From Myxococcales bacterium (GTDB taxonomy: Bacteria; Myxococcota_A; UBA9042), in NCBI GenBank assembly GCA_009692425.1, contig SHZF01000004.1, positions 10,175 to 74,174 of the forward strand: a stretch of DNA of 64,000 bases, read 5' to 3'. Position 1 is the first letter of the stretch, and each line of letters opens with the position of its first letter. The translations under genes and the position numbers were made by a program. Under the pieces are notes generated by a model. It worked only from the letters and a program-made list of their open reading frames with translations, had not been told where the DNA came from and made no database searches. Positions 1 to 33,746 of the stretch are shown in pieces.

Positions 1-655
1 CCTTGTCGTTGCAGTCCTCCTTGGTCACGCAGGCGCTGCACTTCGACTTATCGGTGCCCCCATCGAGGCACGCCTCACCGACTGCGCAATCGGCCTGCGT
101 CATGCAGCAGCCGCCCTTGTAGCTGTACTTGCAGACGTTGTAGGCGCAGTAGTCGAACGAACAGAAGACGCCGTCATCGCAATCGATGTCGTTCTGGCAC
201 GGCGAGCTGACGACGTAGTAGACGGAGCCGCGCGCCTCTGGGTTCGTGAGCTTCGTGCCGTTGTCGGAGGCGAGCGTGCACGTCAGCAGGTGCGTGCCCT
301 TGCTCATGTTGTTGAACGTGAACGAAGACGACTTGGTCGTGCCGACCGCAACATTGTCGATGTCGCACGCGACTTGCCCTAGGGTGAAGTCGCTGGTTAT
401 AAAGGCGAACTCCACCGAGGCCTTCTGGCCAGGCTGGACGAACGTAGACGACCAGTTGGCCGGCGCCATCACCTTCAGCGTCGGTTGCGTCAAGGCAAAG
501 GTCTCGACGTGGAATTCCGCATCGACGCCCGCCGCGTCGGGTGCGTGCGCGGGCGCGGGAGGCGGGCCCTCTTGCGTACACCCGGCGAGCCCGATTCCGG
601 TTAGCCCGCCCCCGGCAAGCGCGAGAACGGCGAGCGATGGCAGGCATGAGCGCAT
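1..655 (-). CDS. Cysteine-rich secreted lipoprotein, N-terminal 218 aa; the gene continues beyond the window start. Paralog of the three giant proteins at 13072-22163.
   Basis: Manual translation of the reverse strand from ATG at 655-653 gives MRSCLPSLAVLALAGGGLTGIGLAGC (lipobox LAGC) then ...CQNDIDCDDGVFCSFDYCAYNVCKYSYKGGCCMTQADC..., the same C-D-D-G-x-x-C-x-x-D-x-C repeat as the downstream giants. The reading frame stays open to position 1. The ORF track did not list it because it runs off the window. Confidence 0.7.
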   Translation of the reverse strand, partial: MRSCLPSLAVLALAGGGLTGIGLAGCTQEGPPPAPAHAPDAAGVDAEFHVETFALTQPTLKVMAPANWSSTFVQPGQKASVEFAFITSDFTLGQVACDIDNVAVGTTKSSSFTFNNMSKGTHLLTCTLASDNGTKLTNPEARGSVYYVVSSPCQNDIDCDDGVFCSFDYCAYNVCKYSYKGGCCMTQADCAVGEACLDGGTDKSKCSACVTKEDCNDK

Positions 656-1085
656 GGAACGGCCTCTGGGCGAGGCCTCCACGGGCAAGGCACGCAAGGC
701 CCCGGCCGGCTCGATGCAGAGGTACTGGCGGACACGGCGCTCGATTCGCATCTCAACCCTCTCAACGACAGGCCTCGCCGGGGCCGCGGCAGGGCGCGAG
801 CGGTGGGGCGGATGGATCGAAGCGGGCGAAGAAGGAGAGATCCAGGTTGCCGAGCTTGCGCTGGCGCACACTTGCGCGGGCCGGTTGCCCGCGCCATCCC
901 TGAACCCTCTGCTTCGCCGTACTCTCGATCATCGCACCGAACCGTCGGCTTGGCGCCGCGCTCCGGGACTCAGTTGTCGCGTCGGCACGGTTGCGCGTGC
1001 AACCGTTGTCGACACAGTTGCAGGTGTCGACACTGCTGCAGGGGATCGGAGGGACGCGGTGGCTCTGCCCATTGGGCGTCGGTCC

Positions 1086-1204
1086 GAGTGGCGGCGACGT
1101 CTCTGAGAGGACGACGTCTCCGAGAGGACGACGTCTCCGAGAGGACATAGCCGCCCGGAGGACACAGCCGCCCGGAGGACATTGCCGCCGGGAGGACACT
1201 GCCA
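1086..1204. repeat. Tandem array of seven 17-bp units. Three are gacgtctc(t/c)gagaggac and four are a(t/c)(a/t)gcc(g/a)cc(c/g)ggaggac. The array lies in the 730-bp region upstream of the divergent Cys-rich lipoprotein gene.
   Basis: Direct reading: gacgtctctgagaggac, gacgtctccgagaggac, gacgtctccgagaggac, atagccgcccggaggac, acagccgcccggaggac, attgccgccgggaggac, actgccaccgggaggag. All units share the same 17-bp phase and a ...gaggac 3' end. Confidence 0.8.
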
Positions 1205-1384
1205 CCGGGAGGAGGCAGAGAGCCGGGTGGATCAAACCCGAACTCTCGATTCTGAACGGCAGTTCGCCGTTTCGTCGTCACCCAGGCGCACGCAGCGCCG
1301 TGAAACGACCCTCCATCGGGCAGGCTAACAAAGCGATGGCGCAATGGCAAGCAGATGATTTCGAGCGGCGGCGCCGGACGAGTC

Positions 1385-2104
1385 TCACGGCCTGAGCTGG
1401 GGCAACTCGAGGGCGCGCCCTGCGCCGAGTTGCACTGCATATTGCGACCCGTGTGCAGCCACGAGTGCGCTGCGGTGGGCAGCGGAAGTCGCGGTCGTGA
1501 GCGCCGCGTAGGTCGTGGCGGCGCTGCCGCACAGCGCGAGTCCGGCGCCCGCGCTAGGCTCGGTGGCTACGTTCAAGGCGATGCCATGACCCGCGACCCC
1601 GTGGGCTTCGTGCAAGCCCAGGCTGGCGAATTTGCCGCCAGCGAACCACACGCCGGCGTCGGCGCCACTGCGCACTTCCGCGGCACAACCGTATGAACGG
1701 GCCAGTTCTGCGGCGGCGAACAACAATTCGGCAGCGAGGCCTGCGAGACCAGTGCGTTCACAGCGCACCGCAACGAAAGCAACAAGTTGGCCGGGCGCAT
1801 GCAGCGTGCCGAGGCCGCCGCGTGGAGCGGGCTCCACCGCGATGCGCTGCGTGGCGCACTGGGCGATCGTGGCAGCGAGCGCGGCCCGTCCGGCGGGCAG
1901 GTGGGCGCGCCGGCCCAGCGTAAAGATGGGCTCGGCAGGCTCGAACAGGAGGAGTTCCGCGCAGCCAGTTTCCGCCACGACGGCCTCCGCGGCGGCGTTG
2001 GCGGCCAGCGCGGTGCCGAACGGAATGCGGCCGAGCCAGCGCGTGCGTGCGCCGCGGAGCCACCCGCTTGCGCAAGTGCAGGCCGGGTTCAGCGACGCAT
2101 TCAT
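1385..2104 (-). CDS. lipB: Lipoyl(octanoyl) transferase LipB
   Basis: RGGLGTLHAPGQLV, KFASLGLH...GHGIALNV match the LipB catalytic region (RGGxxTxHGPGQ / G(L/I)ALNV). Confidence 0.8.
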   Translation of the reverse strand: MNASLNPACTCASGWLRGARTRWLGRIPFGTALAANAAAEAVVAETGCAELLLFEPAEPIFTLGRRAHLPAGRAALAATIAQCATQRIAVEPAPRGGLGTLHAPGQLVAFVAVRCERTGLAGLAAELLFAAAELARSYGCAAEVRSGADAGVWFAGGKFASLGLHEAHGVAGHGIALNVATEPSAGAGLALCGSAATTYAALTTATSAAHRSALVAAHGSQYAVQLGAGRALELPQLRP

Positions 2105-3044: not shown

Positions 3045-3881
3045 TCACGAGCGCGGTGTCGCTTCGGATCGGCCGAACCGGCGTTGGCGGCGGGCATAGT
3101 CGAGCAAGGCGGCGGCCAGTTCAGGCTCCCCGAATTCCGGCCAGGTCGTGTCGGTGAACCACAACTCCGCGTATGCGCACTGCCACAGCAGGAAGTTCGA
3201 CAGGCGCCGCTCGCCGGACGTGCGCACGATGAGGTCGGGAGGCCCGGCCAGAGGGGCAGTCCACAGCGCGGACTCGAAGCGGGTTTCGTCGATCGCGTCC
3301 AGCGCCAGGCGGCCAGATTGCACCTCGGCGGCGAGACGGCGGGCGGCGGCGACGATCTCCTCACGGCCTCCATAGGACAGGCAAAGGCACAGCGTCATGC
3401 CGGTGCCGTCGGCAGTCGCCCGCATGGTCGCTTCGAGGGCCGCGCGCACGCCGAGCGGCAACCGGGCGAGGTCTCCGATCGCCAGCAACCGGATGCCATT
3501 GTCACGCATTTCGCGCAGTTCGCCAGCCAGGTACTCGACGAGCAACCCCATCAGGGCATCGACCTCGCCGCGCGGTCGCGCCCAATTCTGCGCACTGAAC
3601 GCGTAGAGGGTGAGCGTCCGCAGGCCCAAGCGGCGGGCCATGCGCGTGACCGTGCGCACCGTGGCGGCGCCCGCGCGGTGGCCGTCCTGGCGCGCGAGGC
3701 CACGGGCCTGCGCCCAACGGCCGTTGCCGTCCATGACGACCGCGAGGTGGCGGGGCAGACGTCCCTGACACCGCGCGAGGTCGAGGTCGTCTTGCCATGC
3801 CGAACTGGGGGCCGACTGCGTGCCGGTCGCGGCGGCGTAGGCCGGAAAATCATGGGATGCCATGAGGTTCTCCTTTGACAA
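3045..3881 (-). CDS. uppS: Undecaprenyl-diphosphate synthase UppS. It has a ~40 aa N-terminal extension, so the true start may be an internal Met.
   Basis: HLAVVMDGNGRWA, RTSGERRLSNFLLWQ are canonical cis-prenyltransferase motifs. Confidence 0.88.
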   Translation of the reverse strand: MSKENLMASHDFPAYAAATGTQSAPSSAWQDDLDLARCQGRLPRHLAVVMDGNGRWAQARGLARQDGHRAGAATVRTVTRMARRLGLRTLTLYAFSAQNWARPRGEVDALMGLLVEYLAGELREMRDNGIRLLAIGDLARLPLGVRAALEATMRATADGTGMTLCLCLSYGGREEIVAAARRLAAEVQSGRLALDAIDETRFESALWTAPLAGPPDLIVRTSGERRLSNFLLWQCAYAELWFTDTTWPEFGEPELAAALLDYARRQRRFGRSEATPRS

Positions 3882-4848
3882 CCGGCGCCGTGACCGGGGC
3901 CTCGCGGGCAGCCGGCCACGCGCAGCCGCGCCACAGCACCCACCCGGCCCACGCCGCGAGAGGGAGGCTGATGAGTTGAGACGTGGACAGCAGGCCGCCC
4001 AGCCACAGGCCGCGGTCGTCGGCGCGCAGGAATTCGACGCCGAACCGGAACACTGCGTACGACAACATGAACCAGAAGAACACCTCGCCGTCGAAGCGGG
4101 CGCCCTTCTTGTAGCGAGCCCGACACACCAAGAAGATCACCGCGCAAGCCATGGCTTCGTAGAGCTGCGTGGCATGGACGGGCAGGCTGGCCCGGGCGAG
4201 GTCGGACAGGCGGTGTTCGGCGAGGTGGTGGTCCCAGGCCGGCGAGTGGCGCGGGAATGCGAGGCCGAAGGGGCCATCGGTGACCCGACCGAAGCAGCAG
4301 CCGGCGAGGACGCAGCCGGTGCGGCCGAACACGAGGCCCAGCGCGATCGCCCACGCGGCAATGTCGGCAAAGCGCCACACCGGCACCCGGCGGCGGCGCA
4401 GGAACCACAGCCCGGTCGGCACCGCGAGCAGGAAGCCGCCGTAGTAGGCATAGCCGCCGTACCATATCTTGACCACGCGCAGGCAGTCGCGATGCTGGCG
4501 GCACAGCCCGCTGGCGGCCTCGCACCAGTCGCCCAGGCCGGCGTCGAGGCACTGCGCGTCTGCGGCGCACTTCATGCCGTGGCCGAGCGCGAGCGCGGGC
4601 ACGGCCAAGGGGTCGGTGCAGAGGTGGACGTAGTCCCAGAATTGGCCGTCGGCGACAATGTGCAGCGCGCGCGCACCGACCAGGCCGCACGCCAGCATTA
4701 GCAGGCCGCAATCCAAGATGGCATTGCCGTCGAGTCCGACGCGCATTCCTTCGGCGTGGGCCCACAAGATCGCGAGCGTGAAGCCGACCATCAGCAGCGT
4801 AAAGTACGCTGGCAATACGGTGATGCCGAGGTCGAACGAAGGATGCAT
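3850..4848 (-). CDS. lgt: Prolipoprotein diacylglyceryl transferase Lgt. It carries a ~50 aa Cys-rich insertion before the W-x-GG-x-x-x-GG motif.
   Basis: MHPSFDLGITVLP start found at 4848-4846. Motifs IWYGGYAYYGG, GRTGCVLAGCCFG, HATQLYE, FLRADDRG. The 722-aa track ORF 3850..6018 continues upstream in-frame by chance, but that part is Arg-rich garbage and overlaps lspA. Confidence 0.82.
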   Translation of the reverse strand: MHPSFDLGITVLPAYFTLLMVGFTLAILWAHAEGMRVGLDGNAILDCGLLMLACGLVGARALHIVADGQFWDYVHLCTDPLAVPALALGHGMKCAADAQCLDAGLGDWCEAASGLCRQHRDCLRVVKIWYGGYAYYGGFLLAVPTGLWFLRRRRVPVWRFADIAAWAIALGLVFGRTGCVLAGCCFGRVTDGPFGLAFPRHSPAWDHHLAEHRLSDLARASLPVHATQLYEAMACAVIFLVCRARYKKGARFDGEVFFWFMLSYAVFRFGVEFLRADDRGLWLGGLLSTSQLISLPLAAWAGWVLWRGCAWPAAREAPVTAPVVKGEPHGIP

Positions 4849-12925: not shown

Positions 12926-13071
12926 ATGGCGGCACGCACGAGAAACACGCCGCTGCGGTTTGAACCGATGCGCGGGGGCGTGCTAGCATGGTGCGTTCAT
13001 GCAACGCGCAGTCGGCCGGGTACCTCCGCCCCGTCGGCATGACGCGGCCGGGCCTGCGGGAGCCCTTCGCC

Positions 13072-16000
13072 ATGCGCCGATTCTGCGACCGTGCCCGAAT
13101 CCGCCCGTGGCGCCTTGCGCTCGCGTGGCTGGCGTGGGCGGCTGCGTGCACCGAAGAACCCTTGCAGCAAGGGTCGCTCGACGCGATTGGCGCCGACACG
13201 CGCGGAACCGGCGCCGACGCGGCCCCAGACACCGCGACGGTCGATGCCAAGCTGACGGACGCGGCCAGCGACGCCAAGTCCGACGCCGCGAACGACACGA
13301 AAACCGACGAGAAGACGGACAGCGCGGGCCCCGACAGCGCGATCGACAACGGCGCCGACGGCCTGCTGGACACGGCGCCCACCGACGATGCGGACGGGAT
13401 CGTCGATGAATTCGCTGCCGATCAGGACGGACCAGACAGCGCTGGCACCGATGCGGACGCTGCGGGCACCGTGGACGCCGGCGCGGGAGACGCGCCTCCC
13501 AACGTCAAGAGCGTGCATTCGAATGCGTGCACCGCGGCCAGCGACTGCCTGATCCCATGTGCATCGGGCAACTGCGTGGCGGGCACGTGCAGCTATCAGC
13601 CCAAAGGCAAGGGCTGCGTGGCCGACCTCGGCGGCGGCAAGGTGGGCTGCTTCGGCCCCGGCGACACGAGCGACGACAAGCCCTGCCTCGTGTGCCAGCC
13701 GTTGGTGTCGAGTACGGCGCTGACGACGGCGCTGTGGGTGAATGGCCTCGACGGCGAGCCGGGACTGCAGTTCGCCGACACCGCGGGCGCCGGCATCGGC
13801 TGGGGATTCAGCGACAAGAAGTCGAAGTCGGGCGGCAAGTCGCTGTGGTTCGGCGACCCCAAGACAGGCAACTACGCGATAGGCAAGGCGGTCGGCGGCA
13901 CGGCGACCTTGCCGGAGACGAAGGTGCCGCAGTTCAGCGGCACGCAGCCCAAGGTCGCGTTCTGGCTGTGGCTCGACACCGAGGAGTTCGACGGCCACGA
14001 CGTGCTGACGCTCGGCGTGCTCGAAGGCGGAGCCACGAAGGTCCTGTGGACGTCGGACGCGATCAAGGGCACCACGGGTGGCGCATGGCAGCGCATCGAG
14101 GCCGAACTCGTGGGCTACGGTGGCAAGACGGTGGCGCTGCAGTTCGGCTTCGACTCAAAGGACGAGGTCGCCAACACGTTCAGTGGCCCCTTCCTCGACG
14201 ACGTGGCCGTGCTGTCGGGCTGCTGCGCCGGGGCCGCGGATTGCGACGACGGCAACGCGTGCAGCGACGACAGTTGCGCGGCGGGAGCGGGCGGCCTGCC
14301 CCTGTGCAGCCACGCCAAGAAGGCCGGGTGCTGCTCGACGTCGGGCGACTGCGACGACAAGGTGTTGTGCACGTTCGATCTGTGCTCCGGGCCGGGCGGC
14401 ACGTGCAGCCACAACGCAAAGCCCGGCTGTTGCCTGACCGACAACGGCTGCGACGATGGCAACGCGCTGACGATCGACAAGTGCGTGGCTTCGAAGTGCC
14501 TGATCATCGACACCGCGTGCAAGTCGGACGCCGACTGCAAGACGAACGATCCGTGCCAGAAGGGGTCGTGCCAGGCCGGAATCTGCGCGTTCCAATCGAC
14601 GTGCTGCATCGCCGACAGCGAGTGCGACGACTTCAACCCGTGCACGATCGACGGCTGCGACAAGGGCAAATGCGTCACCACGGCATCGACGGTGCCGGGC
14701 TGCTGCTCGCCCCAGCCACTTTTCAACCAGTTCGGCAGCAGCGACGAGGGCTGGACGTCGGGCCCGGCGTCGCCCCAAAACAACGACTGGCATTGGAAGG
14801 CGCTGCCGTCCGCAGTCAGCCCGCCGGGCGCCCTGCACTTTGGATTGAAAGACAAAGACATGGGGCTTACGGCCAGCCAGCCGCAGTCCAAGATCACGAC
14901 GGCGAGCCCGCCGATCACGCTGCTGCCCGGCAAGGAAGTGACGTTCAAACTCTGGTACATGTCGGACATGACGGCCGCCAGTGGCAACGTGCGGGTGTTC
15001 GCGGTGGTCGACGGCAAGGAGGTGACGTTCGGCTACCTGAGCCTGAACACGAGCAAGAAGTGGACGACGTTCGGCCCGTATGACCTCTCGCCGGCGATGG
15101 GCAAGACGATCCAGATCAAGCTGGAGATGACGCTGACACCCGTTGGCTCGGTCACGGGCACCGGGCTGTGGGTCGACGACTTCGAGGTGAATTCGACGTG
15201 TCAGGCCAAGAAGTGCGCGGCCTCGGGCACCTGCGGCATCGGTGCGATGCCATGCGTGGCCGGCGTGTGCACGGACGGTCAGTGCACGTACCCGAACGCC
15301 TGCTGCGTCACGAGTGCCGACTGCGCCGACCAGAACCTGTGCACAAGCGACGTGTGCGTGAACACGAAGTGCCAGTTCAACCCGATCGCGAAGTGCTGCA
15401 TGGGCAGCGGCGACTGTGCCGACGGCAACCCGTGCACGCAAGACATCTGCCCAGCGCCCGGCCAGATCTGCCAGTGGCCGCCGGTGCCCGGCTGCTGCCT
15501 GTCGTCGGTCGAATGCAATGACAGCAACGCGTGCACGAAGGACGGCTGCATCCTGAACAAGTGCGTCAACGAGAACACGTGCTGCAAGGTCGACAAGGAC
15601 TGCGACGACAGTGAGACAAAGTGCACGGTCGACAAGTGCGTGGCCCAGATCTGCACGCACACGTCGACGGGCGCGGCCGGTTGCTGCTCGCCGATCGTGT
15701 GGGAGAACGACTTCGATCAGGGCGACCTCAAGGGCATCAAGGTGCAGAACTCCGCTGGCGCCAAGGGCTGGAACCACTGGCCGAACGCGCAGTTGTCGAA
15801 GTCGGGCAAGGGCGTGCTGTACTATGGCGATCCCGCGGTCGGCAATTTCGACTTCAGCTTGTCGAGCGGCACGGCCAAGACGCTGGCGATCCAGTTGCCG
15901 GTGTCGACGCCGTCGCACATGACGTTCTGGCTCTACATGGACACCGAGCAGGGCCCGCCCTACGACTCGCTCGCCGTGCGCGTCTACGTCGATGGCGCCC

Positions 16001-16191
16001 AAAATCCGGTGTGGGAAAAGAACCAGAACGGCTACACGGTGCTGAAATGGACCGAGATCAAGATCGACCTCGCGAAGTGGGCCGGCAAGTCCATCGAGAT
16101 CGAGTTCTACTTCAACACGGTCGATTCGGTGGGCAACAGCGGCAAGGGCGTCTTCGTCGATGACCTGAAGGTCGTGACGGCGTGTCCATGA
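13072..16191 (+). CDS. Giant secreted lipoprotein, 1039 aa. It has a D/A/T-rich linker, then several MAM-like beta-sandwich modules separated by C-x-D-x-N-x-C-T-x-D-x-C cysteine-rich repeats.
   Basis: MRRFCDRARIRPWRLALAWLAWAAAC signal and lipobox. Repeats CDDGNACSDDSC, CDDKVLCTFDLC, CDDGNALTIDKC, CDDFNPCTIDGC, CADQNLCTSDVC, CADGNPCTQDIC, CNDSNACTKDGC. Modules with LWFGDP / FWLWLDTE / GPFLDDVAV...C and a C-terminal GKGVFVDDLKVVTAC (MAM-like ...DD..(V/I)...C ending). Confidence 0.85.
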   Translation: MRRFCDRARIRPWRLALAWLAWAAACTEEPLQQGSLDAIGADTRGTGADAAPDTATVDAKLTDAASDAKSDAANDTKTDEKTDSAGPDSAIDNGADGLLDTAPTDDADGIVDEFAADQDGPDSAGTDADAAGTVDAGAGDAPPNVKSVHSNACTAASDCLIPCASGNCVAGTCSYQPKGKGCVADLGGGKVGCFGPGDTSDDKPCLVCQPLVSSTALTTALWVNGLDGEPGLQFADTAGAGIGWGFSDKKSKSGGKSLWFGDPKTGNYAIGKAVGGTATLPETKVPQFSGTQPKVAFWLWLDTEEFDGHDVLTLGVLEGGATKVLWTSDAIKGTTGGAWQRIEAELVGYGGKTVALQFGFDSKDEVANTFSGPFLDDVAVLSGCCAGAADCDDGNACSDDSCAAGAGGLPLCSHAKKAGCCSTSGDCDDKVLCTFDLCSGPGGTCSHNAKPGCCLTDNGCDDGNALTIDKCVASKCLIIDTACKSDADCKTNDPCQKGSCQAGICAFQSTCCIADSECDDFNPCTIDGCDKGKCVTTASTVPGCCSPQPLFNQFGSSDEGWTSGPASPQNNDWHWKALPSAVSPPGALHFGLKDKDMGLTASQPQSKITTASPPITLLPGKEVTFKLWYMSDMTAASGNVRVFAVVDGKEVTFGYLSLNTSKKWTTFGPYDLSPAMGKTIQIKLEMTLTPVGSVTGTGLWVDDFEVNSTCQAKKCAASGTCGIGAMPCVAGVCTDGQCTYPNACCVTSADCADQNLCTSDVCVNTKCQFNPIAKCCMGSGDCADGNPCTQDICPAPGQICQWPPVPGCCLSSVECNDSNACTKDGCILNKCVNENTCCKVDKDCDDSETKCTVDKCVAQICTHTSTGAAGCCSPIVWENDFDQGDLKGIKVQNSAGAKGWNHWPNAQLSKSGKGVLYYGDPAVGNFDFSLSSGTAKTLAIQLPVSTPSHMTFWLYMDTEQGPPYDSLAVRVYVDGAQNPVWEKNQNGYTVLKWTEIKIDLAKWAGKSIEIEFYFNTVDSVGNSGKGVFVDDLKVVTACP

Positions 16192-18452: not shown

Positions 18453-18521
18453 GGGCCGAAGTGCTCGCCAGCGGGGATCGGGACCTCGCAGGCAGCCTCA
18501 GCGTGTGTGTGGAGGGATGTG

Positions 18522-21500
18522 ATGGTGTGCAATGATCCAGTGGGCAAGGGCAATCTCGCGGCGTGCGCACAAGGGGCCCGCCAGTTTCTTGCGGGCCTGG
18601 GGCTCCTCGCGGCCGCTGTCGCGTGCGGGGACCCGGTCGCGACGGCCAAGACCGCGCCGGCAACGCCCGACACGACTGACCCAGATGGTGGGCAAGATGG
18701 CACCGAACCGACCGACGCACCTGCCGTGGTCGACACTGCGGCGCCGCTGGATGGCGATGCCGCCATCGAAGCGAAGGGTCCCGAACTGACCGATGCACCG
18801 GACATCCAGACGGCCCCGGACGTCGGTTGCCTGACGGACAACCAATGCGTGGGTGCCGTGCCCGTGACCGGTTGCACCGTGGCCGTCTGCCAGAAAGGCC
18901 TGTGCATCTTGGGGCCCAAGCCGGGGACGTGTTGCGACGACGCGCCGTGCGACGATGGCGTGCAGTGCACGAAGGACAAATGCGACGTGGCGACGAACAC
19001 GTGCCAGAACGCCCCGATTGCCGGGTGCTGCCAGAACCAGAAGAAATACTTGAACGTTGGCTTCGAGCAGGCGCCGGTGGGCGTTGCCGCGACGTACGAG
19101 GGCTTCGTGCAGAGCCCCGACCCGAAGGACGCCTCCTACCCGAACGGCAACGTGAAGTGGCAGGTCGAGACGCGGCGCGCGCACTCGGGCACCCACTCCC
19201 TGTACTTCGGCAATGAATGCGGAACGTACGACTCGGAGATGAAGGGGGCGCTCGCCTGCAAGGAAAGTGCGGTCTCGCTGGCCCTCTACACCGCGCTGAA
19301 GTCGAGTGAAGTGCAGATTCCGGCGGGCGAAGCCGCGCTGCTGTCGTTCTGGATGTGGGTCGACACGCAGCCGGTGCTGACGCAGTTGCATTGGACCCAG
19401 ACGCAGAAAGGGGAAAATGATTGCTCGCCGAAATGCGGCATCGGCGCCACCTGCGCGGCCAACGCGAACGGCAAGACGGAGTGTGTCAAGCAGCCCCAGA
19501 AGGCCGGCACCTGCAAGGTGCCGTGCGATCCCGGAACGACGTGTGTCGATGTCGGCGGCGGCAACTCGGCGTGCGTCAACGAGAGCGACGTGATGACGGT
19601 GCGCATCAACGGGGCGGTCAAGCCCACGCTGACCTCGACGGAATTCGACAAGTCGACCAAGGGGCAGTGGAAGCATTTCGTTGTCAACCTCGCGGAGTAC
19701 GCGGGCAAGTCGGTTCAGATCCTCTGGGAATTCAAGACGAACACAAATCGCAACGCCTACGAGGGCATCTACCTCGACGACGTAGGCATCGAAACGTACT
19801 GCGTGAAGAAGGACGAGAAGTCCGAGGGCTTCGCCAGCTGCGACGAGAAGACCGCGTGCCCCGACGACAAGAAGGAGTGCTCAGCCGACGTTTGCACGCC
19901 GTTCACGAACCTGAAGGTTCAGGGCCTGTGCCTGTACGACAAGGTGGCGAACTGCTGCGCGGGGTCGATCGACTGCGACGACGCGAAGGACTGCACGGTC
20001 GATGCGTGCAACAAGGCCGTCGGCAAGCCCACGGGGTCGTGTTCGCACAAGCCCGACTCGAACAAGGAGCAGTGCTGCAAGGCCGAAAAACTGTTCGGCG
20101 ACAACTTCGAAGCGGGCAGCTTGGCGGGATGGGCGACGGTGCTGAGCAACTCGCAGCAGGTCCTGTGGCAACTCCACAAGTCCGGCGGCACGGGCGGCGG
20201 CGCGGCGATGTACTTCGGCAACGCAGCACAGACCAACTACGACGACCCGACGATCAAGCCGAACGGGCCGAAGGGGCGTGTGTGCTCGGTCAAGAAGGTC
20301 AAGCTGACAGACACTGCGGCCTACAACGTCGCAAAGTTCCAGCTGAAGATGGAGACGGAGTGGTCGGGCAAGAAGAAGGAGAGCTACGTCAACCCGGCCG
20401 TCGTGCAGGGCCAGCCGGTCGAGAAGGTCGACTACTTGAACGTGGAAGTTCGCGTCGCTGGCGTCGTGCAGACCGTGTGGTCGTCAGACTCGGTGTACGG
20501 CACGACCGAAGGGCAGTTCCTGCCCGTGACGGTGGACCTGGACAAGTTCGCCGGCAAGGAGGTGGAGTTGTGCTTCTACTTCGACGCGGGCGATTCGGCG
20601 GCGAACGCAGCCAAGGGCATCACGATCGATGACGTGCAGATTGCGGTCGCGTGCGAAAAGGAAGTCTGCACGGTCGCCGAACACTGCGCAGCGGAGTGCG
20701 ACGCTGTGCTCGACACGCCATCGTGTGAGGCAGGCAAGTGCGTCTGCACGAAGATCCCCGGCAAGTGCAAGGACGACGCGTCATGCGACGACAAGGACAG
20801 TTGCACCGACCAGGCGTGCAAGTTGGGCAAGTGCGAATACACCATGAAGTCGCCAACGTGCTGCGCAGCAAAGACGCCTTACCAGGAGTCGTTCGATGCG
20901 GGCGTGGCCGGGGCGGCGCTGCCAACCGGGTGGAAGGTGACGGGCCTGCCGGGCACGGCGCTGAATGGCAAGCCGTATGACCAGACGATCAAGTGGAATA
21001 TCACGGACTTGAAGGCGAAGTCACCCCAATTTTCACTCTATTTCGGCAACAACGGCACCTACAACGCGGGGGCCTCGGCGCCCGGCGGGCTGGCGCGCAG
21101 CCCCGAAGTGACGCTGCCGGCCAACGGGACCACGCTCCTCACCTTTGCGCTGTTCCTGTCGACCGAGTGGGACCCGAATCCGAAGGACCCGACCAAAGTG
21201 TTCAAGGCGCCGCCCCCGGGCATCGTCGTCGACCGGCTGCGGGTGGGTCTGAACGACCCCAAGCAAGCCGACGCGGCCAAGGCCAATGCCTGGCTGTGGG
21301 ACAGCTACGCGATCGAAGGGACGACGGCGGGCAACTGGCAGGTCGTCGTCGTCGCGGTACCAGACGCCTGGAAGGGCAAGACCGCCAAGCTGCAGTTCGA
21401 GTTCGACGCCGGCCATGACAACAACAACATCTACGAGGGCGCGTACATCGACAACGTGCACTTGACGACGGTCTGCGATGTGCCGGAATGCGTCGAGGAC

Positions 21501-22163
21501 AAGAAGTGCGTGCCGGCGGTTCCCGACGTGTGCAAGAAGTACTACTGCTCGGCCCAGACCGTTGCCAACCAGCTGTCGTTTGCGTGCAAGGCCGACTTCA
21601 AGCCCGGCCCGACCTGCTGTTCTTCGTCGGTGGCGCTGGCGGCGGAGACGTTCGAATCGGCCAAGCTCGGCGCCTGGGCGGGGTCTTGCAACAACACGCT
21701 CGTGAAGTGGCAGGCGTCGCCGCACAAGTACTTGGCTGGCCTGTACGAAGCCTACATGGGCAACCAGGAGAAGCAGAACTACGCCGACGGCACGTCCATT
21801 GTGGTGTGCAGCCTGACGTCGCCGCTGGTGACGCTCTCGTCGGACCTCAAAAAGGAGGCCTTCTTGCAGTTCAAGGCGTGGATCGACGTCGAGACGAACT
21901 CTTTCGAGAAGTTGCGGGTCGTGGCGACGACGTTTGCCGGAAACCAGAAGCTGACGAAGGTGATTTGGGACAAGGCGGTGGCCAAGGACATGACCTTGGC
22001 GGAGTACAAGATGGCGATCGAGAAGAAGATCAACGTCTCGGAATTCAAAGGAAAGGGCGCCGTGTCGTTCAGCTTCGAATTCGACTCCCTCGACGCCAAG
22101 AAAAACGCCGACTTCAAGGGCGTGTACCTCGACGACCTGACGGTGACTGAGCCGTGCCTGTAG
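18522..22163 (+). CDS. Giant lipoprotein paralog 3 (1213 aa): four MAM-like modules interleaved with Cys-rich repeats.
   Basis: GGAGG RBS 6 nt before ATG 18522; the track's GTG 18507 is an alternative. Signal LAGLGLLAAAVAC. Motifs HSLYFGNECGTYDSE, FWMWVDTQP, YEGIYLDDVGIETYC, CDDAKDCTVDAC, NIYEGAYIDNVHLTTVC, FKGVYLDDLTVTEPC. Confidence 0.85.
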   Translation: MVCNDPVGKGNLAACAQGARQFLAGLGLLAAAVACGDPVATAKTAPATPDTTDPDGGQDGTEPTDAPAVVDTAAPLDGDAAIEAKGPELTDAPDIQTAPDVGCLTDNQCVGAVPVTGCTVAVCQKGLCILGPKPGTCCDDAPCDDGVQCTKDKCDVATNTCQNAPIAGCCQNQKKYLNVGFEQAPVGVAATYEGFVQSPDPKDASYPNGNVKWQVETRRAHSGTHSLYFGNECGTYDSEMKGALACKESAVSLALYTALKSSEVQIPAGEAALLSFWMWVDTQPVLTQLHWTQTQKGENDCSPKCGIGATCAANANGKTECVKQPQKAGTCKVPCDPGTTCVDVGGGNSACVNESDVMTVRINGAVKPTLTSTEFDKSTKGQWKHFVVNLAEYAGKSVQILWEFKTNTNRNAYEGIYLDDVGIETYCVKKDEKSEGFASCDEKTACPDDKKECSADVCTPFTNLKVQGLCLYDKVANCCAGSIDCDDAKDCTVDACNKAVGKPTGSCSHKPDSNKEQCCKAEKLFGDNFEAGSLAGWATVLSNSQQVLWQLHKSGGTGGGAAMYFGNAAQTNYDDPTIKPNGPKGRVCSVKKVKLTDTAAYNVAKFQLKMETEWSGKKKESYVNPAVVQGQPVEKVDYLNVEVRVAGVVQTVWSSDSVYGTTEGQFLPVTVDLDKFAGKEVELCFYFDAGDSAANAAKGITIDDVQIAVACEKEVCTVAEHCAAECDAVLDTPSCEAGKCVCTKIPGKCKDDASCDDKDSCTDQACKLGKCEYTMKSPTCCAAKTPYQESFDAGVAGAALPTGWKVTGLPGTALNGKPYDQTIKWNITDLKAKSPQFSLYFGNNGTYNAGASAPGGLARSPEVTLPANGTTLLTFALFLSTEWDPNPKDPTKVFKAPPPGIVVDRLRVGLNDPKQADAAKANAWLWDSYAIEGTTAGNWQVVVVAVPDAWKGKTAKLQFEFDAGHDNNNIYEGAYIDNVHLTTVCDVPECVEDKKCVPAVPDVCKKYYCSAQTVANQLSFACKADFKPGPTCCSSSVALAAETFESAKLGAWAGSCNNTLVKWQASPHKYLAGLYEAYMGNQEKQNYADGTSIVVCSLTSPLVTLSSDLKKEAFLQFKAWIDVETNSFEKLRVVATTFAGNQKLTKVIWDKAVAKDMTLAEYKMAIEKKINVSEFKGKGAVSFSFEFDSLDAKKNADFKGVYLDDLTVTEPCL

Positions 22164-32647: not shown

Positions 32648-32840
32648 GATTCCCTCGTAGCGCCGGCCGTACGATGGCGCCAACCCATGGTGGCGCGCCG
32701 ACGTGCGATGCCGGGCAGCAGAAGGGAGACACCCGTCTCCCGTGCTGTGCGGCGTTCCAAGGCCCTATGACCTTGAGTGGACAGGCCCTACGGCCTTGAG
32801 TGGACAGGCCCTGCGGCCTTGAGTGGACTGGCCCTGCGGC

Positions 32841-33746
32841 CTACCCTTCCTCCAGTTCTCGATCCGTAAGCTTCTCGGGCTTCACCTCGGCCGTAGGCGG
32901 CGGTTCGGCCGGCATCTCGCTTGCCTCGCCGCGCGCCTTGGCCCTCGCCATCTCGCGTTCGAACTGGGTGACGGTGGCAGCCGCCGCCGATCCGACCGAA
33001 GTCTGCGGCCAGCGCGCGCCGATGACCCGCCACACGTCGACGGCGCGTTGGCGCCAGGCGAGGTGCTCGTAGGCTTCCGCGAGCAGCGCATAGTTGTCGA
33101 GCGTATGCGTGCGCGCCGGGTGTTCCTGCATCGCCTGGTGCAAGCGGGCGACGACACCGACCCATTGACCGGCGTCGCGGTAGAATTCGATGACGTAGTG
33201 GTTGTGCGCGTCCAGCACGTCGAGGCAGCGGTCGCGCAACAGCAGGGCCTCGGTCACGTAGCGCGAGCGTGGATGCTGGCGCACGAAGCGCTCGAGCTGC
33301 TTGCGCGCCTGCTGCACGCTGGAGAGGTCGAGTTCGTGTACGGGCGGCAGCGCCCAGAAATCCGACGGCATCATCTCGACGTGCGCCTTGGCGACCATGA
33401 AGAGCGCGTACGGCACGTTTTCATTGCCGTCGTGGCGCTGAACGAACGAGTGGTAGGTCTCGATCGCCTCTTCGAACTTGCGCTGGTGGAACTGGGCGTC
33501 GGCCAAGCGCAACCGTGCCAACGCGGTCAGACCCAGGTAGCTCGGCAGCTTGGAAAGCTTGAGGAAGTCCTGCTCCGCCTCCAGCAAGCCGCCACCATGC
33601 AGGTGTTCGAGGCCGTCCTGATACAACGACTCGGCTTCCACCGCGATCGGCTGCGCGGTCTGCGAGCTGCAGGCAAAGGCGAACGCACCGCACGCGCCCA
33701 CGAGGAGGCGGACGCAGGCGGGGCCGGTTGCAACGCAGGCTGCCAT
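32841..33746 (-). CDS. bamD: Outer membrane protein assembly factor BamD (TPR lipoprotein)
   Basis: Lipobox ...FAFAC; TPR-like helices; C-terminal YVTEALLLRDRCLDVLDAHNHYVIEFYRDAGQWVGVVARL typical of BamD/YfiO. Confidence 0.72.
   Translation of the reverse strand: MAACVATGPACVRLLVGACGAFAFACSSQTAQPIAVEAESLYQDGLEHLHGGGLLEAEQDFLKLSKLPSYLGLTALARLRLADAQFHQRKFEEAIETYHSFVQRHDGNENVPYALFMVAKAHVEMMPSDFWALPPVHELDLSSVQQARKQLERFVRQHPRSRYVTEALLLRDRCLDVLDAHNHYVIEFYRDAGQWVGVVARLHQAMQEHPARTHTLDNYALLAEAYEHLAWRQRAVDVWRVIGARWPQTSVGSAAAATVTQFEREMARAKARGEASEMPAEPPPTAEVKPEKLTDRELEEG

Follow-up and report, generated by a model that had tools for sequence, protein, structure and literature searches.

A 17-bp tandem array in the putative structured leader of a giant Cys-rich lipoprotein gene from a Myxococcales bacterium

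What role, if any, does a 17-bp tandem array play between two genes that are read in the same direction? The array in question lies in a stretch of 64,000 nucleotides from a Myxococcales metagenome-assembled genome (MAG; contig SHZF01000004.1, positions 10,175 to 74,174, henceforth the window), in the gap between lipB and the gene for a giant Cys-rich lipoprotein. An initial annotation of this DNA had suggested a binding-site array or a contingency locus that could tune expression of the lipoprotein. From a comparison with six related lineages we favour a different explanation, which we consider reasonably probable: the array is a slippage-born, transcribed and lineage-specific minisatellite, located in a leader that is conserved and structured, within a linker that tolerates insertions.

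A 17-bp array of two unit types

The 17-bp array is real. It spans 119 bp (1096-1214) in one 17-bp register and, read along the minus strand, consists of one degenerate founder unit (u0), three type-2 units (u1-u3) and three near-identical type-1 units (u4-u6, Table 1). Tandem Repeats Finder resolves it into two adjoining period-17 arrays with a score of 97 each, one at 1095-1146 (3.1 copies, 97% matches) and the other at 1141-1213 (4.3 copies, 89% matches). The type-1 units match one another at 16-17 of 17 positions, which argues that their duplication is recent and the tract mutable, and the type-2 units do so at 14-16 of 17 positions. Between the two types, 10-11 of 17 positions agree in register, among them the hexamer GTCCTC (GAGGAC on the plus strand). 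Identity to the founder drops along the array, from 14/17 in the neighbouring u1 through 13/17 in u2, our type-2 reference, to about 10/17 in type 1, and the flanking 17 bp (1079-1095) are unrelated to the units, with 6-7/17 matches. When up to three mismatches are allowed, the type-1 unit occurs three times in the window versus 0.43 times expected in shuffled sequence, and none of 100 shuffles reached three; neither unit type was found elsewhere in the 64 kb searched. The type-1 unit contains two dyads, GACGUC and UCUCNGAGA. Terminal inverted repeats flanking the array were not found, the best candidate being a 14-nt pair that is 79% complementary, and a mobile-element origin was rejected for want of such repeats.

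This delineation retains the seven units in one register described in the initial annotation, and the shuffles bear out its view that the array is not random GC-rich sequence. The last unit does not share the terminal GAGGAC ascribed to all seven, since it ends in GAGGAG and is only a 13/17 match to the type-2 reference, and the coordinates given for the array, 1086-1204, lie about 10 bp to the left of its true position. As had been supposed, the array is non-coding. By codon position, the GC content of the gap between lipB and the lipoprotein gene is 0.65/0.71/0.65, versus a third-position value (GC3) of 0.78-0.86 in the flanking genes; the long open reading frames (ORFs) that cross the array had no Pfam match, and no leader-peptide start codon is conserved across the lineages compared below. 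On these grounds, and since 17 is not divisible by 3, a coding explanation was rejected.

A putative promoter and leader in seven lineages

The nearest LipB in the protein collection is only 59% identical, and no close relative of this genome was found; by exact look-up, neither the LipB of the window nor P0001 had an entry. Our comparison set therefore consists of the window and loci from six related uncultured lineages (L001, L003, L006, L007, L010 and L135), in which the gene order lgt-uppS-cdsA-lipB-gap-giant protein is kept, with a gap of 300-900 bp. A protein search with the N-terminus of the lipoprotein as a single sequence gave no matches, and the lower-GC lineage L135 was added through a six-sequence profile of the giant protein N-terminus, of which it was the only new protein. 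The giant proteins share GVDAEFGVETFAL... after the lipobox and are, judged by sequence, orthologous; Cys-rich repeats of the MopE and Dicty_CTDC types are present in the L001 orthologue. We delimited the region from promoter to start codon at 749-1350 (minus strand) in the window, 6736-7165 in L001, 3525-3975 in L003, 2398-2890 in L006, 6634-6905 in L007 and 575-1475 in L135. MAFFT alignments of these regions are reliable at the two ends only.

At the lipB-proximal end, the block directly after the lipB stop codon has the make-up of a promoter with a -35 element TTGCCw, a 17-nt spacer and an extended -10 element. The pattern CTTGCC-N15-TGYTAnnnT is kept in the window, L001, L003, L006, L007 and L010, and L135 has CTTGCA in place of CTTGCC; in the window it has a single match, versus 0.06 expected. 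We take this block, about 35 bp past the lipB stop, as a putative promoter from which transcription would start near 1314-1316. An invariant GGAGG follows 7-8 nt past the -10 block and leads into a predicted hairpin (hairpin 1), in which 80% of cells are paired, versus 36-51% in slid controls, and eight of the 15 pairs show compensatory changes. A covariance model of this element (R1), built from five lineages, recovered hairpin 1 in L135, which was outside the training set (22.8 bits, E 0.013), and detected no second copy in the window. In hairpin 2, 75% of cells are paired, versus 35-55% in slid controls, and five of eight pairs are compensatory. Several G-U pairs in these hairpins would be A-C on the opposite strand, which points to an RNA on the strand of the genes.

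Hairpin 2 is followed by a hairpin with a C/U-rich loop (hairpin 2b), which was folded sequence by sequence, as the differing loop lengths defeat RNAalifold. In each of the seven lineages it comes out as the minimum-energy fold, with stem sequences that differ, as in L007 (CUGCC-UUCUCCCCCGACAAAC-GGCGG) and L006 (GGCCGU-CUCUUCCCCCGACAU-ACGGCC), and has a z of -2.5 or below in five of the seven, those of L007 (z +0.5) and L135 (z -1.0) being no better than shuffles. Further along, the relatives have a hairpin 3 (GUUGC-GAUCCCCU-GCAAC) with a GAUCCCC motif in its loop. The order of modules is constant: GGAGG with hairpin 1, the UGAUCC-loop hairpin, the C/U-loop hairpin, the GAUCCCC motif and a ribosome-binding block, CCUGUCGUnAAGAGGAUUGnGAUG. 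In L007 the complete set of modules is packed into the roughly 230 nt from promoter to start codon. This leaves no room for another promoter and argues that the modules form the 5' leader of the lipoprotein mRNA, a leader that would measure about 565 nt in the window. Across lineages the length varies from about 230 to about 870 nt while the order of modules stays fixed, so the linkers between modules evidently tolerate insertions. Rfam returned nothing with E <= 1 in the window gap or the six related loci. A metagenome scan for the promoter followed by GGAGG and GCGT found three unrelated promoters only, whose GGAGG is an ordinary ribosome-binding site, in a collection evidently without the Joint Genome Institute (JGI) contigs that carry the leader.

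Where does the array sit relative to these modules? With the putative promoter upstream of it, the array is most likely transcribed within the 5' leader rather than positioned in front of the promoter; it would occupy about +100 to +220, 345-463 nt upstream of ATG 751. The founder u0 is the loop and 3' arm of the C/U-loop hairpin, at a position orthologous to CUGCCUUCUCCCCCGAC in the relatives, and CUGCCUCCUCCC in the window matches CUGCCUUCUCCC of L007 at the equivalent place after hairpin 2. The array itself is absent from all six related lineages (Tandem Repeats Finder for L001, L003, L006, L007 and L135; L010 by eye), and the same program found no repeat at all in the leaders of L001, L006, L007 and L135. 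The L003 leader has an 18-bp array of its own (3804-3899, CCAGCGTGCCGTGGAAGC, 5.3 copies) directly 3' of hairpin 3, unrelated to the window array in both sequence and position. The window leader contains a further 18-bp duplication (1007-1042), which interrupts the module that is hairpin 3 in the relatives and would be a second slippage event within the same leader. In the predicted fold, the 201-nt stretch with the 17-bp array pairs with itself over a long domain (-98.9 kcal/mol, z -4.1).

Both genes that border the gap, lipB (2104..1385) and the lipoprotein gene, lie on the minus strand, with the array between the stop of the one and the start of the other, so that the lipoprotein gene cannot be called divergent in the sense of divergently transcribed. 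Upstream of lipB, cdsA, uppS and lgt are on the same strand (ORF list; Pfam labels taken from orthologues). The lipoprotein start had been set at ATG 655. The conserved start and ribosome-binding block are at ATG 751, and the protein probably starts there, behind the conserved GAGAGGGUUGAG ribosome-binding block; ATG 655, internal and in the same frame, lies 32 codons downstream, immediately ahead of the signal peptide, and may serve as an alternative or second start. A ribosome-binding box, AGAGGGUU(G/C)AG, occurs twice in the leader, at 752-762 and 900-910, with 10 of 11 positions identical; an AUG behind the upstream copy begins an ORF of 98 codons (601-897, minus strand), which is out of frame and probably spurious. 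Two further large ORFs on the plus strand of the window (12988-16191 and 18507-22163) have their Cys-rich repeat motif in common with the lipoprotein (tblastn E 4e-6 to 5e-4).

Table 1. Features of the gap between lipB and the lipoprotein gene and of its borders in the window.
Feature	Position	Strand	Description
lipB (octanoyltransferase)	1385..2104	-	100% identical to NCBI protein EXR79_02030 (Myxococcales MAG); PF21948, E 1.3e-12
Putative sigma-70-like promoter	1322..1350	-	-35 TTGCCA 1350-1345; 17-nt spacer with TG; -10 TAGCCT 1327-1322
Putative leader 5' end	1267..1316	-	Invariant GGAGG 1314-1310, then predicted hairpin 1 (15 pairs, loop YGCGUR)
Predicted hairpin 2	1218..1247	-	Conserved loop (U/C)UGAUCC
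Predicted hairpin 2b (C/U loop)	1199..1218	-	CUGCC-UCCUCCCGGU-GGCAG; loop contains CCUCCUCCC; -10.9 kcal/mol, z -3.1
Founder unit	1198-1214	+	ACTGCCACCGGGAGGAG; ends GAGGAG instead of GAGGAC
Founder u0	1214-1198	-	DNA CTCCTCCCGGTGGCAGT; RNA CUCCUCCCGGUGGCAGU
Type-2 units	1147-1163; 1164-1180; 1181-1197	+	ATAGCCGCCCGGAGGAC; ACAGCCGCCCGGAGGAC; ATTGCCGCCGGGAGGAC
u1-u3 (type 2)	1197-1147	-	DNA GTCCTCCCGGCGGCAAT, GTCCTCCGGGCGGCTGT, GTCCTCCGGGCGGCTAT; RNA GUCCUCCCGGCGGCAAU, GUCCUCCGGGCGGCUGU, GUCCUCCGGGCGGCUAU
Type-1 units	1096-1112; 1113-1129 and 1130-1146	+	GACGTCTCTGAGAGGAC; GACGTCTCCGAGAGGAC (two copies)
u4-u6 (type 1)	1146-1096	-	DNA GTCCTCTCGGAGACGTC x2, then GTCCTCTCAGAGACGTC; RNA GUCCUCUCGGAGACGUC x2, then GUCCUCUCAGAGACGUC
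CGAUCCCCUGC motif (GAUCCCC)	1035..1049	-	Predicted to pair with the ribosome-binding site of the window
Second tandem duplication, 18 bp	1007..1042	-	TGTCGACACAGYTGCAGG, 2 copies and a weak third at 980-997; score 58
Ribosome-binding block and probable start codon	749..763	-	GAGAGGGUUGAGAUG, ATG 751-749; block CCUGUCGUnAAGAGGAUUGnGAUG aligns in all lineages
Giant Cys-rich lipoprotein gene, 5' part	1..751	-	Lipobox LAGC; runs off the window

Origin of the array and competing explanations

How could such an array have arisen? According to the explanation that we favour, the promoter past the lipB stop would start the leader on the minus strand, and head-to-tail duplication would have acted on the loop and 3' arm of the C/U-loop hairpin, with slipped-strand mispairing at this hairpin as the likeliest mechanism. 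Divergence would then have produced two unit types, of which the distal one would have been re-amplified recently, leaving an insert of about 100 nt (roughly +100 to +220) that is predicted to fold back on itself together with its 3' flank. The linker that holds the insert differs greatly in length between the relatives. The falling identity to u0 and the near identity of the distal units fit such serial duplication from a hairpin, divergence and recent re-amplification. Tandem duplications in two lineages, the window and L003, start within or right beside conserved hairpins and illustrate hairpin-promoted slippage. Beyond lengthening or restructuring the leader, the array would have no sequence-specific job.

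Several observations weigh against this explanation. A simple promoter scan missed the putative promoter, whose TAGCCT agrees with TATAAT at three of six positions, and both it and the transcription start are placed by conservation. The hexamer GUCCUC was kept while the remainder of the unit diverged, which could reflect selection on the motif. With LipB identities of 59% at most, the relatives are distant, so that absence of the array from them is no proof that it is dispensable here. Finally, once u1-u6 are deleted in silico, the ribosome-binding site is predicted to be more accessible (0.39 versus 0.20), in global folds of a kind that is unreliable for such long RNAs.

The same hexamer and the same refold, untrusted as the latter is, would suit an RNA-level rheostat, in which the repeats multiply an anti-Shine-Dalgarno-like C/U motif of the hairpin-2b-loop kind and their copy number sets translation or mRNA stability. 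Type-1 CCUCUC would pair with the ribosome-binding site GAGAGG(G) and type-2 UCCUCC with the invariant 5' GGAGGG or, in a variant, the array hairpin would be a processing site. There is a precedent in a transcribed, pyrimidine-rich 5' untranslated region (UTR) repeat of a large surface protein, the length of which sets expression (PMC12721329). The type-1 units do hold an exact 6-nt complement of GAGAGG, which is weak evidence in sequence of 68% GC, and a conserved run of six positions is not significant given that the phase of the unit is arbitrary. The predicted long hairpin of the array region (z -4.1) is in keeping with the idea. The most stable duplex of the array with the ribosome-binding region, however, reaches -28.3 kcal/mol, no better than shuffled arrays (-31.1 +/- 3.3), and the 5' GGAGGG pairs no better than with shuffles, 24% of which do as well; pairing of the array with either site was rejected on these duplex energies. 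The full-length fold pairs the ribosome-binding site with GAUCCCCU at 1035-1049 rather than with the array, deletion of the type-1 units alone has no effect in the fold, and the array is not conserved in the relatives. In four of six lineages the predicted partner of the ribosome-binding site is a conserved pyrimidine loop, but not the same loop throughout: the model pairs the site with the single-copy C/U loop in L006 and L007 and with a GAUCC loop in the window and L135; by these predictions the conserved pyrimidine loops behave as anti-Shine-Dalgarno candidates. A single conserved long-range partner cannot be claimed, as it varies by lineage between the GAUCCCC motif, the hairpin-2 loop, the C/U loop and local sequence. 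On balance we regard a rheostat at this locus as unlikely. More speculative still, and likewise unlikely in our view, is the wider proposal of an undescribed cis-regulatory leader that controls giant Cys-rich (MopE-type) lipoproteins in an uncultured Myxococcota clade. It would comprise the GGAGG, hairpin 1, two GAUCC loops and a C/U loop that compete as anti-Shine-Dalgarno partners, and the conserved ribosome-binding block. Amplification of the C/U module would here have given rise to a 17-nt array whose copy number sets translation or mRNA processing, as a counterpart of the hmw1A rheostat of Haemophilus influenzae.

A role at the DNA level, as a binding-site array or as a contingency locus switching transcription of the lipoprotein gene by copy number, appears improbable to us. 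The dyads of the type-1 unit and a non-coding site upstream of a surface-protein gene would befit binding sites, and the near-identical type-1 units a mutable tract. Against this, the array sits 100-220 bp downstream of the only conserved promoter, itself putative, and is missing in six lineages in which this promoter and the RNA modules are kept; had it been a conserved operator array, one would expect it to have persisted. Moreover, a spacing of 17 bp sets successive sites on different helix faces, no more than 10-11 of 17 positions agree between the two unit types, and further copies are lacking near the paralogs in the window, as neither the unit nor the leader was found upstream of the two Cys-rich ORFs. 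Classical contingency tracts have units of 1-9 bp; here the units measure 17 bp, come in two diverged types and number at most three near-identical copies, which does not make a short-unit tract. Of the regulatory idea in the initial annotation there remain a location where lipoprotein expression could be affected and the mutability evident from the type-1 units; binding sites are what the position downstream of the putative promoter and the absence from six lineages speak against. Nor can the 17-bp period be read as a sign of a binding-site array, given the abundance of unrelated 17-bp arrays described below, and the suggestion that the unit might recur upstream of other paralogs found no counterpart within the 64-kb window. 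We give very little credence to the idea that the gap encodes a small RNA in its own right, akin to cuckoo/CcsR, that would display CCUCCUCCC in several hairpins. One exact CCUCCUCCC does lie in a predicted hairpin loop (u0), the putative promoter is directly upstream, and CcsR1 matches the minus strand at 1086-1161, if only with 12.6 bits versus a gathering score of 65.3 (E 6.1). The duplicated unit lacks the 5' arm, however, and u1-u6 form no hairpins of their own with the motif in the loop, pairing instead with each other and the 3' flank; no terminator is predicted, the conserved modules run up to the start codon as expected of a leader, and the cuckoo family has been described from alphaproteobacteria (PMC4615179). 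Least credible of all is that faulty assembly, or chance in GC-rich sequence, produced the pattern. Short-read assemblies can miscount repeat copies, and the source is a MAG; yet each half of the array scores 97, no shuffle reached the observed count, the whole array of 119 bp should be shorter than a typical read, and distinguishing substitutions in the units anchor the assembly.

Relation to known repeat systems and significance

The minisatellite explanation can be set against repeat systems of known behaviour. In H. influenzae hmw1A, a transcribed (ATCTTTC)n tract in the 5' UTR forms a hairpin that is cleaved by RNase III, and the length of the tract sets expression (PMC12721329). Both cases have a pyrimidine-rich, slippage-mutable tandem repeat between the promoter (putative here) and the start codon of a gene for a very large surface protein, which would place it in the transcribed leader here as well, and both have a long hairpin, shown there and predicted here. 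They differ in that the hmw1A units are 7 nt long and present in at least 10 identical copies, versus 17 nt and 7-8 diverged copies of two types here, and in that no G-rich partner arm was found in our locus, where the array is predicted to pair with itself and the 3' flank. Dependence on repeat number, RNase III cleavage and strain polymorphism have been demonstrated for hmw1A; the counterpart here is the predicted self-paired domain. With the cuckoo/CcsR/alpha-r14 RNAs (RF02791) the array shares a C/U-rich, anti-Shine-Dalgarno-like motif in a hairpin loop, stems that vary between lineages and several copies of the motif, of which the exact CCUCCUCCC is in u0. The cuckoo family is defined by 2-4 adjacent hairpins, each with the motif in its loop (PMC4615179). 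Only u0 is a hairpin here, the score is far below the gathering threshold of RF02791, and the element would lie within an mRNA leader of a Myxococcota-like MAG, unlike the free small RNAs of alphaproteobacteria.

Tandem repeats between bacterial genes are otherwise familiar. Variable-number tandem repeat (VNTR) loci are defined by copy-number polymorphism among strains. The loci of mycobacterial interspersed repetitive units (MIRUs) are intergenic minisatellites within operons that form dispersed families with units of 40-100 bp, and an 8-bp repeat reportedly lies upstream of clbR in the colibactin island. The present array, with head-to-tail units of at least about 10 bp in a non-coding gap between co-directional genes, partly diverged and with its newest copies identical, has the form of an intergenic minisatellite, and it differs from MIRUs in that its unit occurs at one place only in the window. 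Iteron and operator arrays, too, are built of direct repeats that are in phase, measure about 17-22 bp and contain a dyad; the array here is unconserved, lies downstream of the putative promoter, has two divergent unit types and no neighbouring regulator or replication gene.

That a 17-bp period is nothing special emerged when one genome per species was scanned for three GTCCTC at 17-bp spacing. This loose pattern hit at least 120 loci, almost all of them unrelated 17-bp arrays, mostly in GC-rich genomes; adjacent 17-mers were at least 13/17 identical in 227 of 229 cases among the matches listed, and the unit sequences were otherwise unrelated. The source lineage was not among the loci listed. 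A striking likeness is an array in an unrelated actinobacterium, Nonomuraea maheshkhaliensis (L091, 6990-7075, minus strand), GTCCTCCGGGCGGCTTC x4, which matches the type-2 unit at 15/17 positions and lies just after a terminator-like hairpin. With at least 120 GC-rich arrays and two unit types to compare, this is probably coincidence (rough p ~0.1). A further case, in several Thermoanaerobaculia and 'Candidatus Multivorans' genomes, is a 17-nt array of 6-9 perfect copies of ACAACAGGAGGTCCTCC that abuts the ATG of a gene for a small secreted or membrane protein (L055, 4290-4425, protein of 119 aa; L089, 900-1000, minus strand; also L013, L086 and L127). Its unit has a Shine-Dalgarno GGAGG beside the complement CCUCC, a TTGACA-type promoter lies just upstream in L089, and the array looks like a conserved repeat leader that would sequester the Shine-Dalgarno sequence. 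Elsewhere in our window, a 23-bp tandem repeat at 32760-32842 (AGGCCCTACGGCCTTGAGTGGAC, 3.6 copies, 93% matches) has a palindrome, AGGCC-CUAC-GGCCU, in each unit.

On its own, the 17-bp array is an ordinary bacterial minisatellite, of use mainly as a strain-typing marker. More notable than the repeats is the putative leader, which seven lineages of an uncultured deltaproteobacteria-like clade have kept and which has two hairpins with covarying stems and no Rfam match. The giant Cys-rich surface lipoprotein gene behind it always follows lgt, uppS, cdsA and lipB, genes of lipoprotein and lipid biosynthesis. If the pyrimidine-rich loops are indeed anti-Shine-Dalgarno elements, this would be a new leader for translational control, and the array a natural experiment in module dose.

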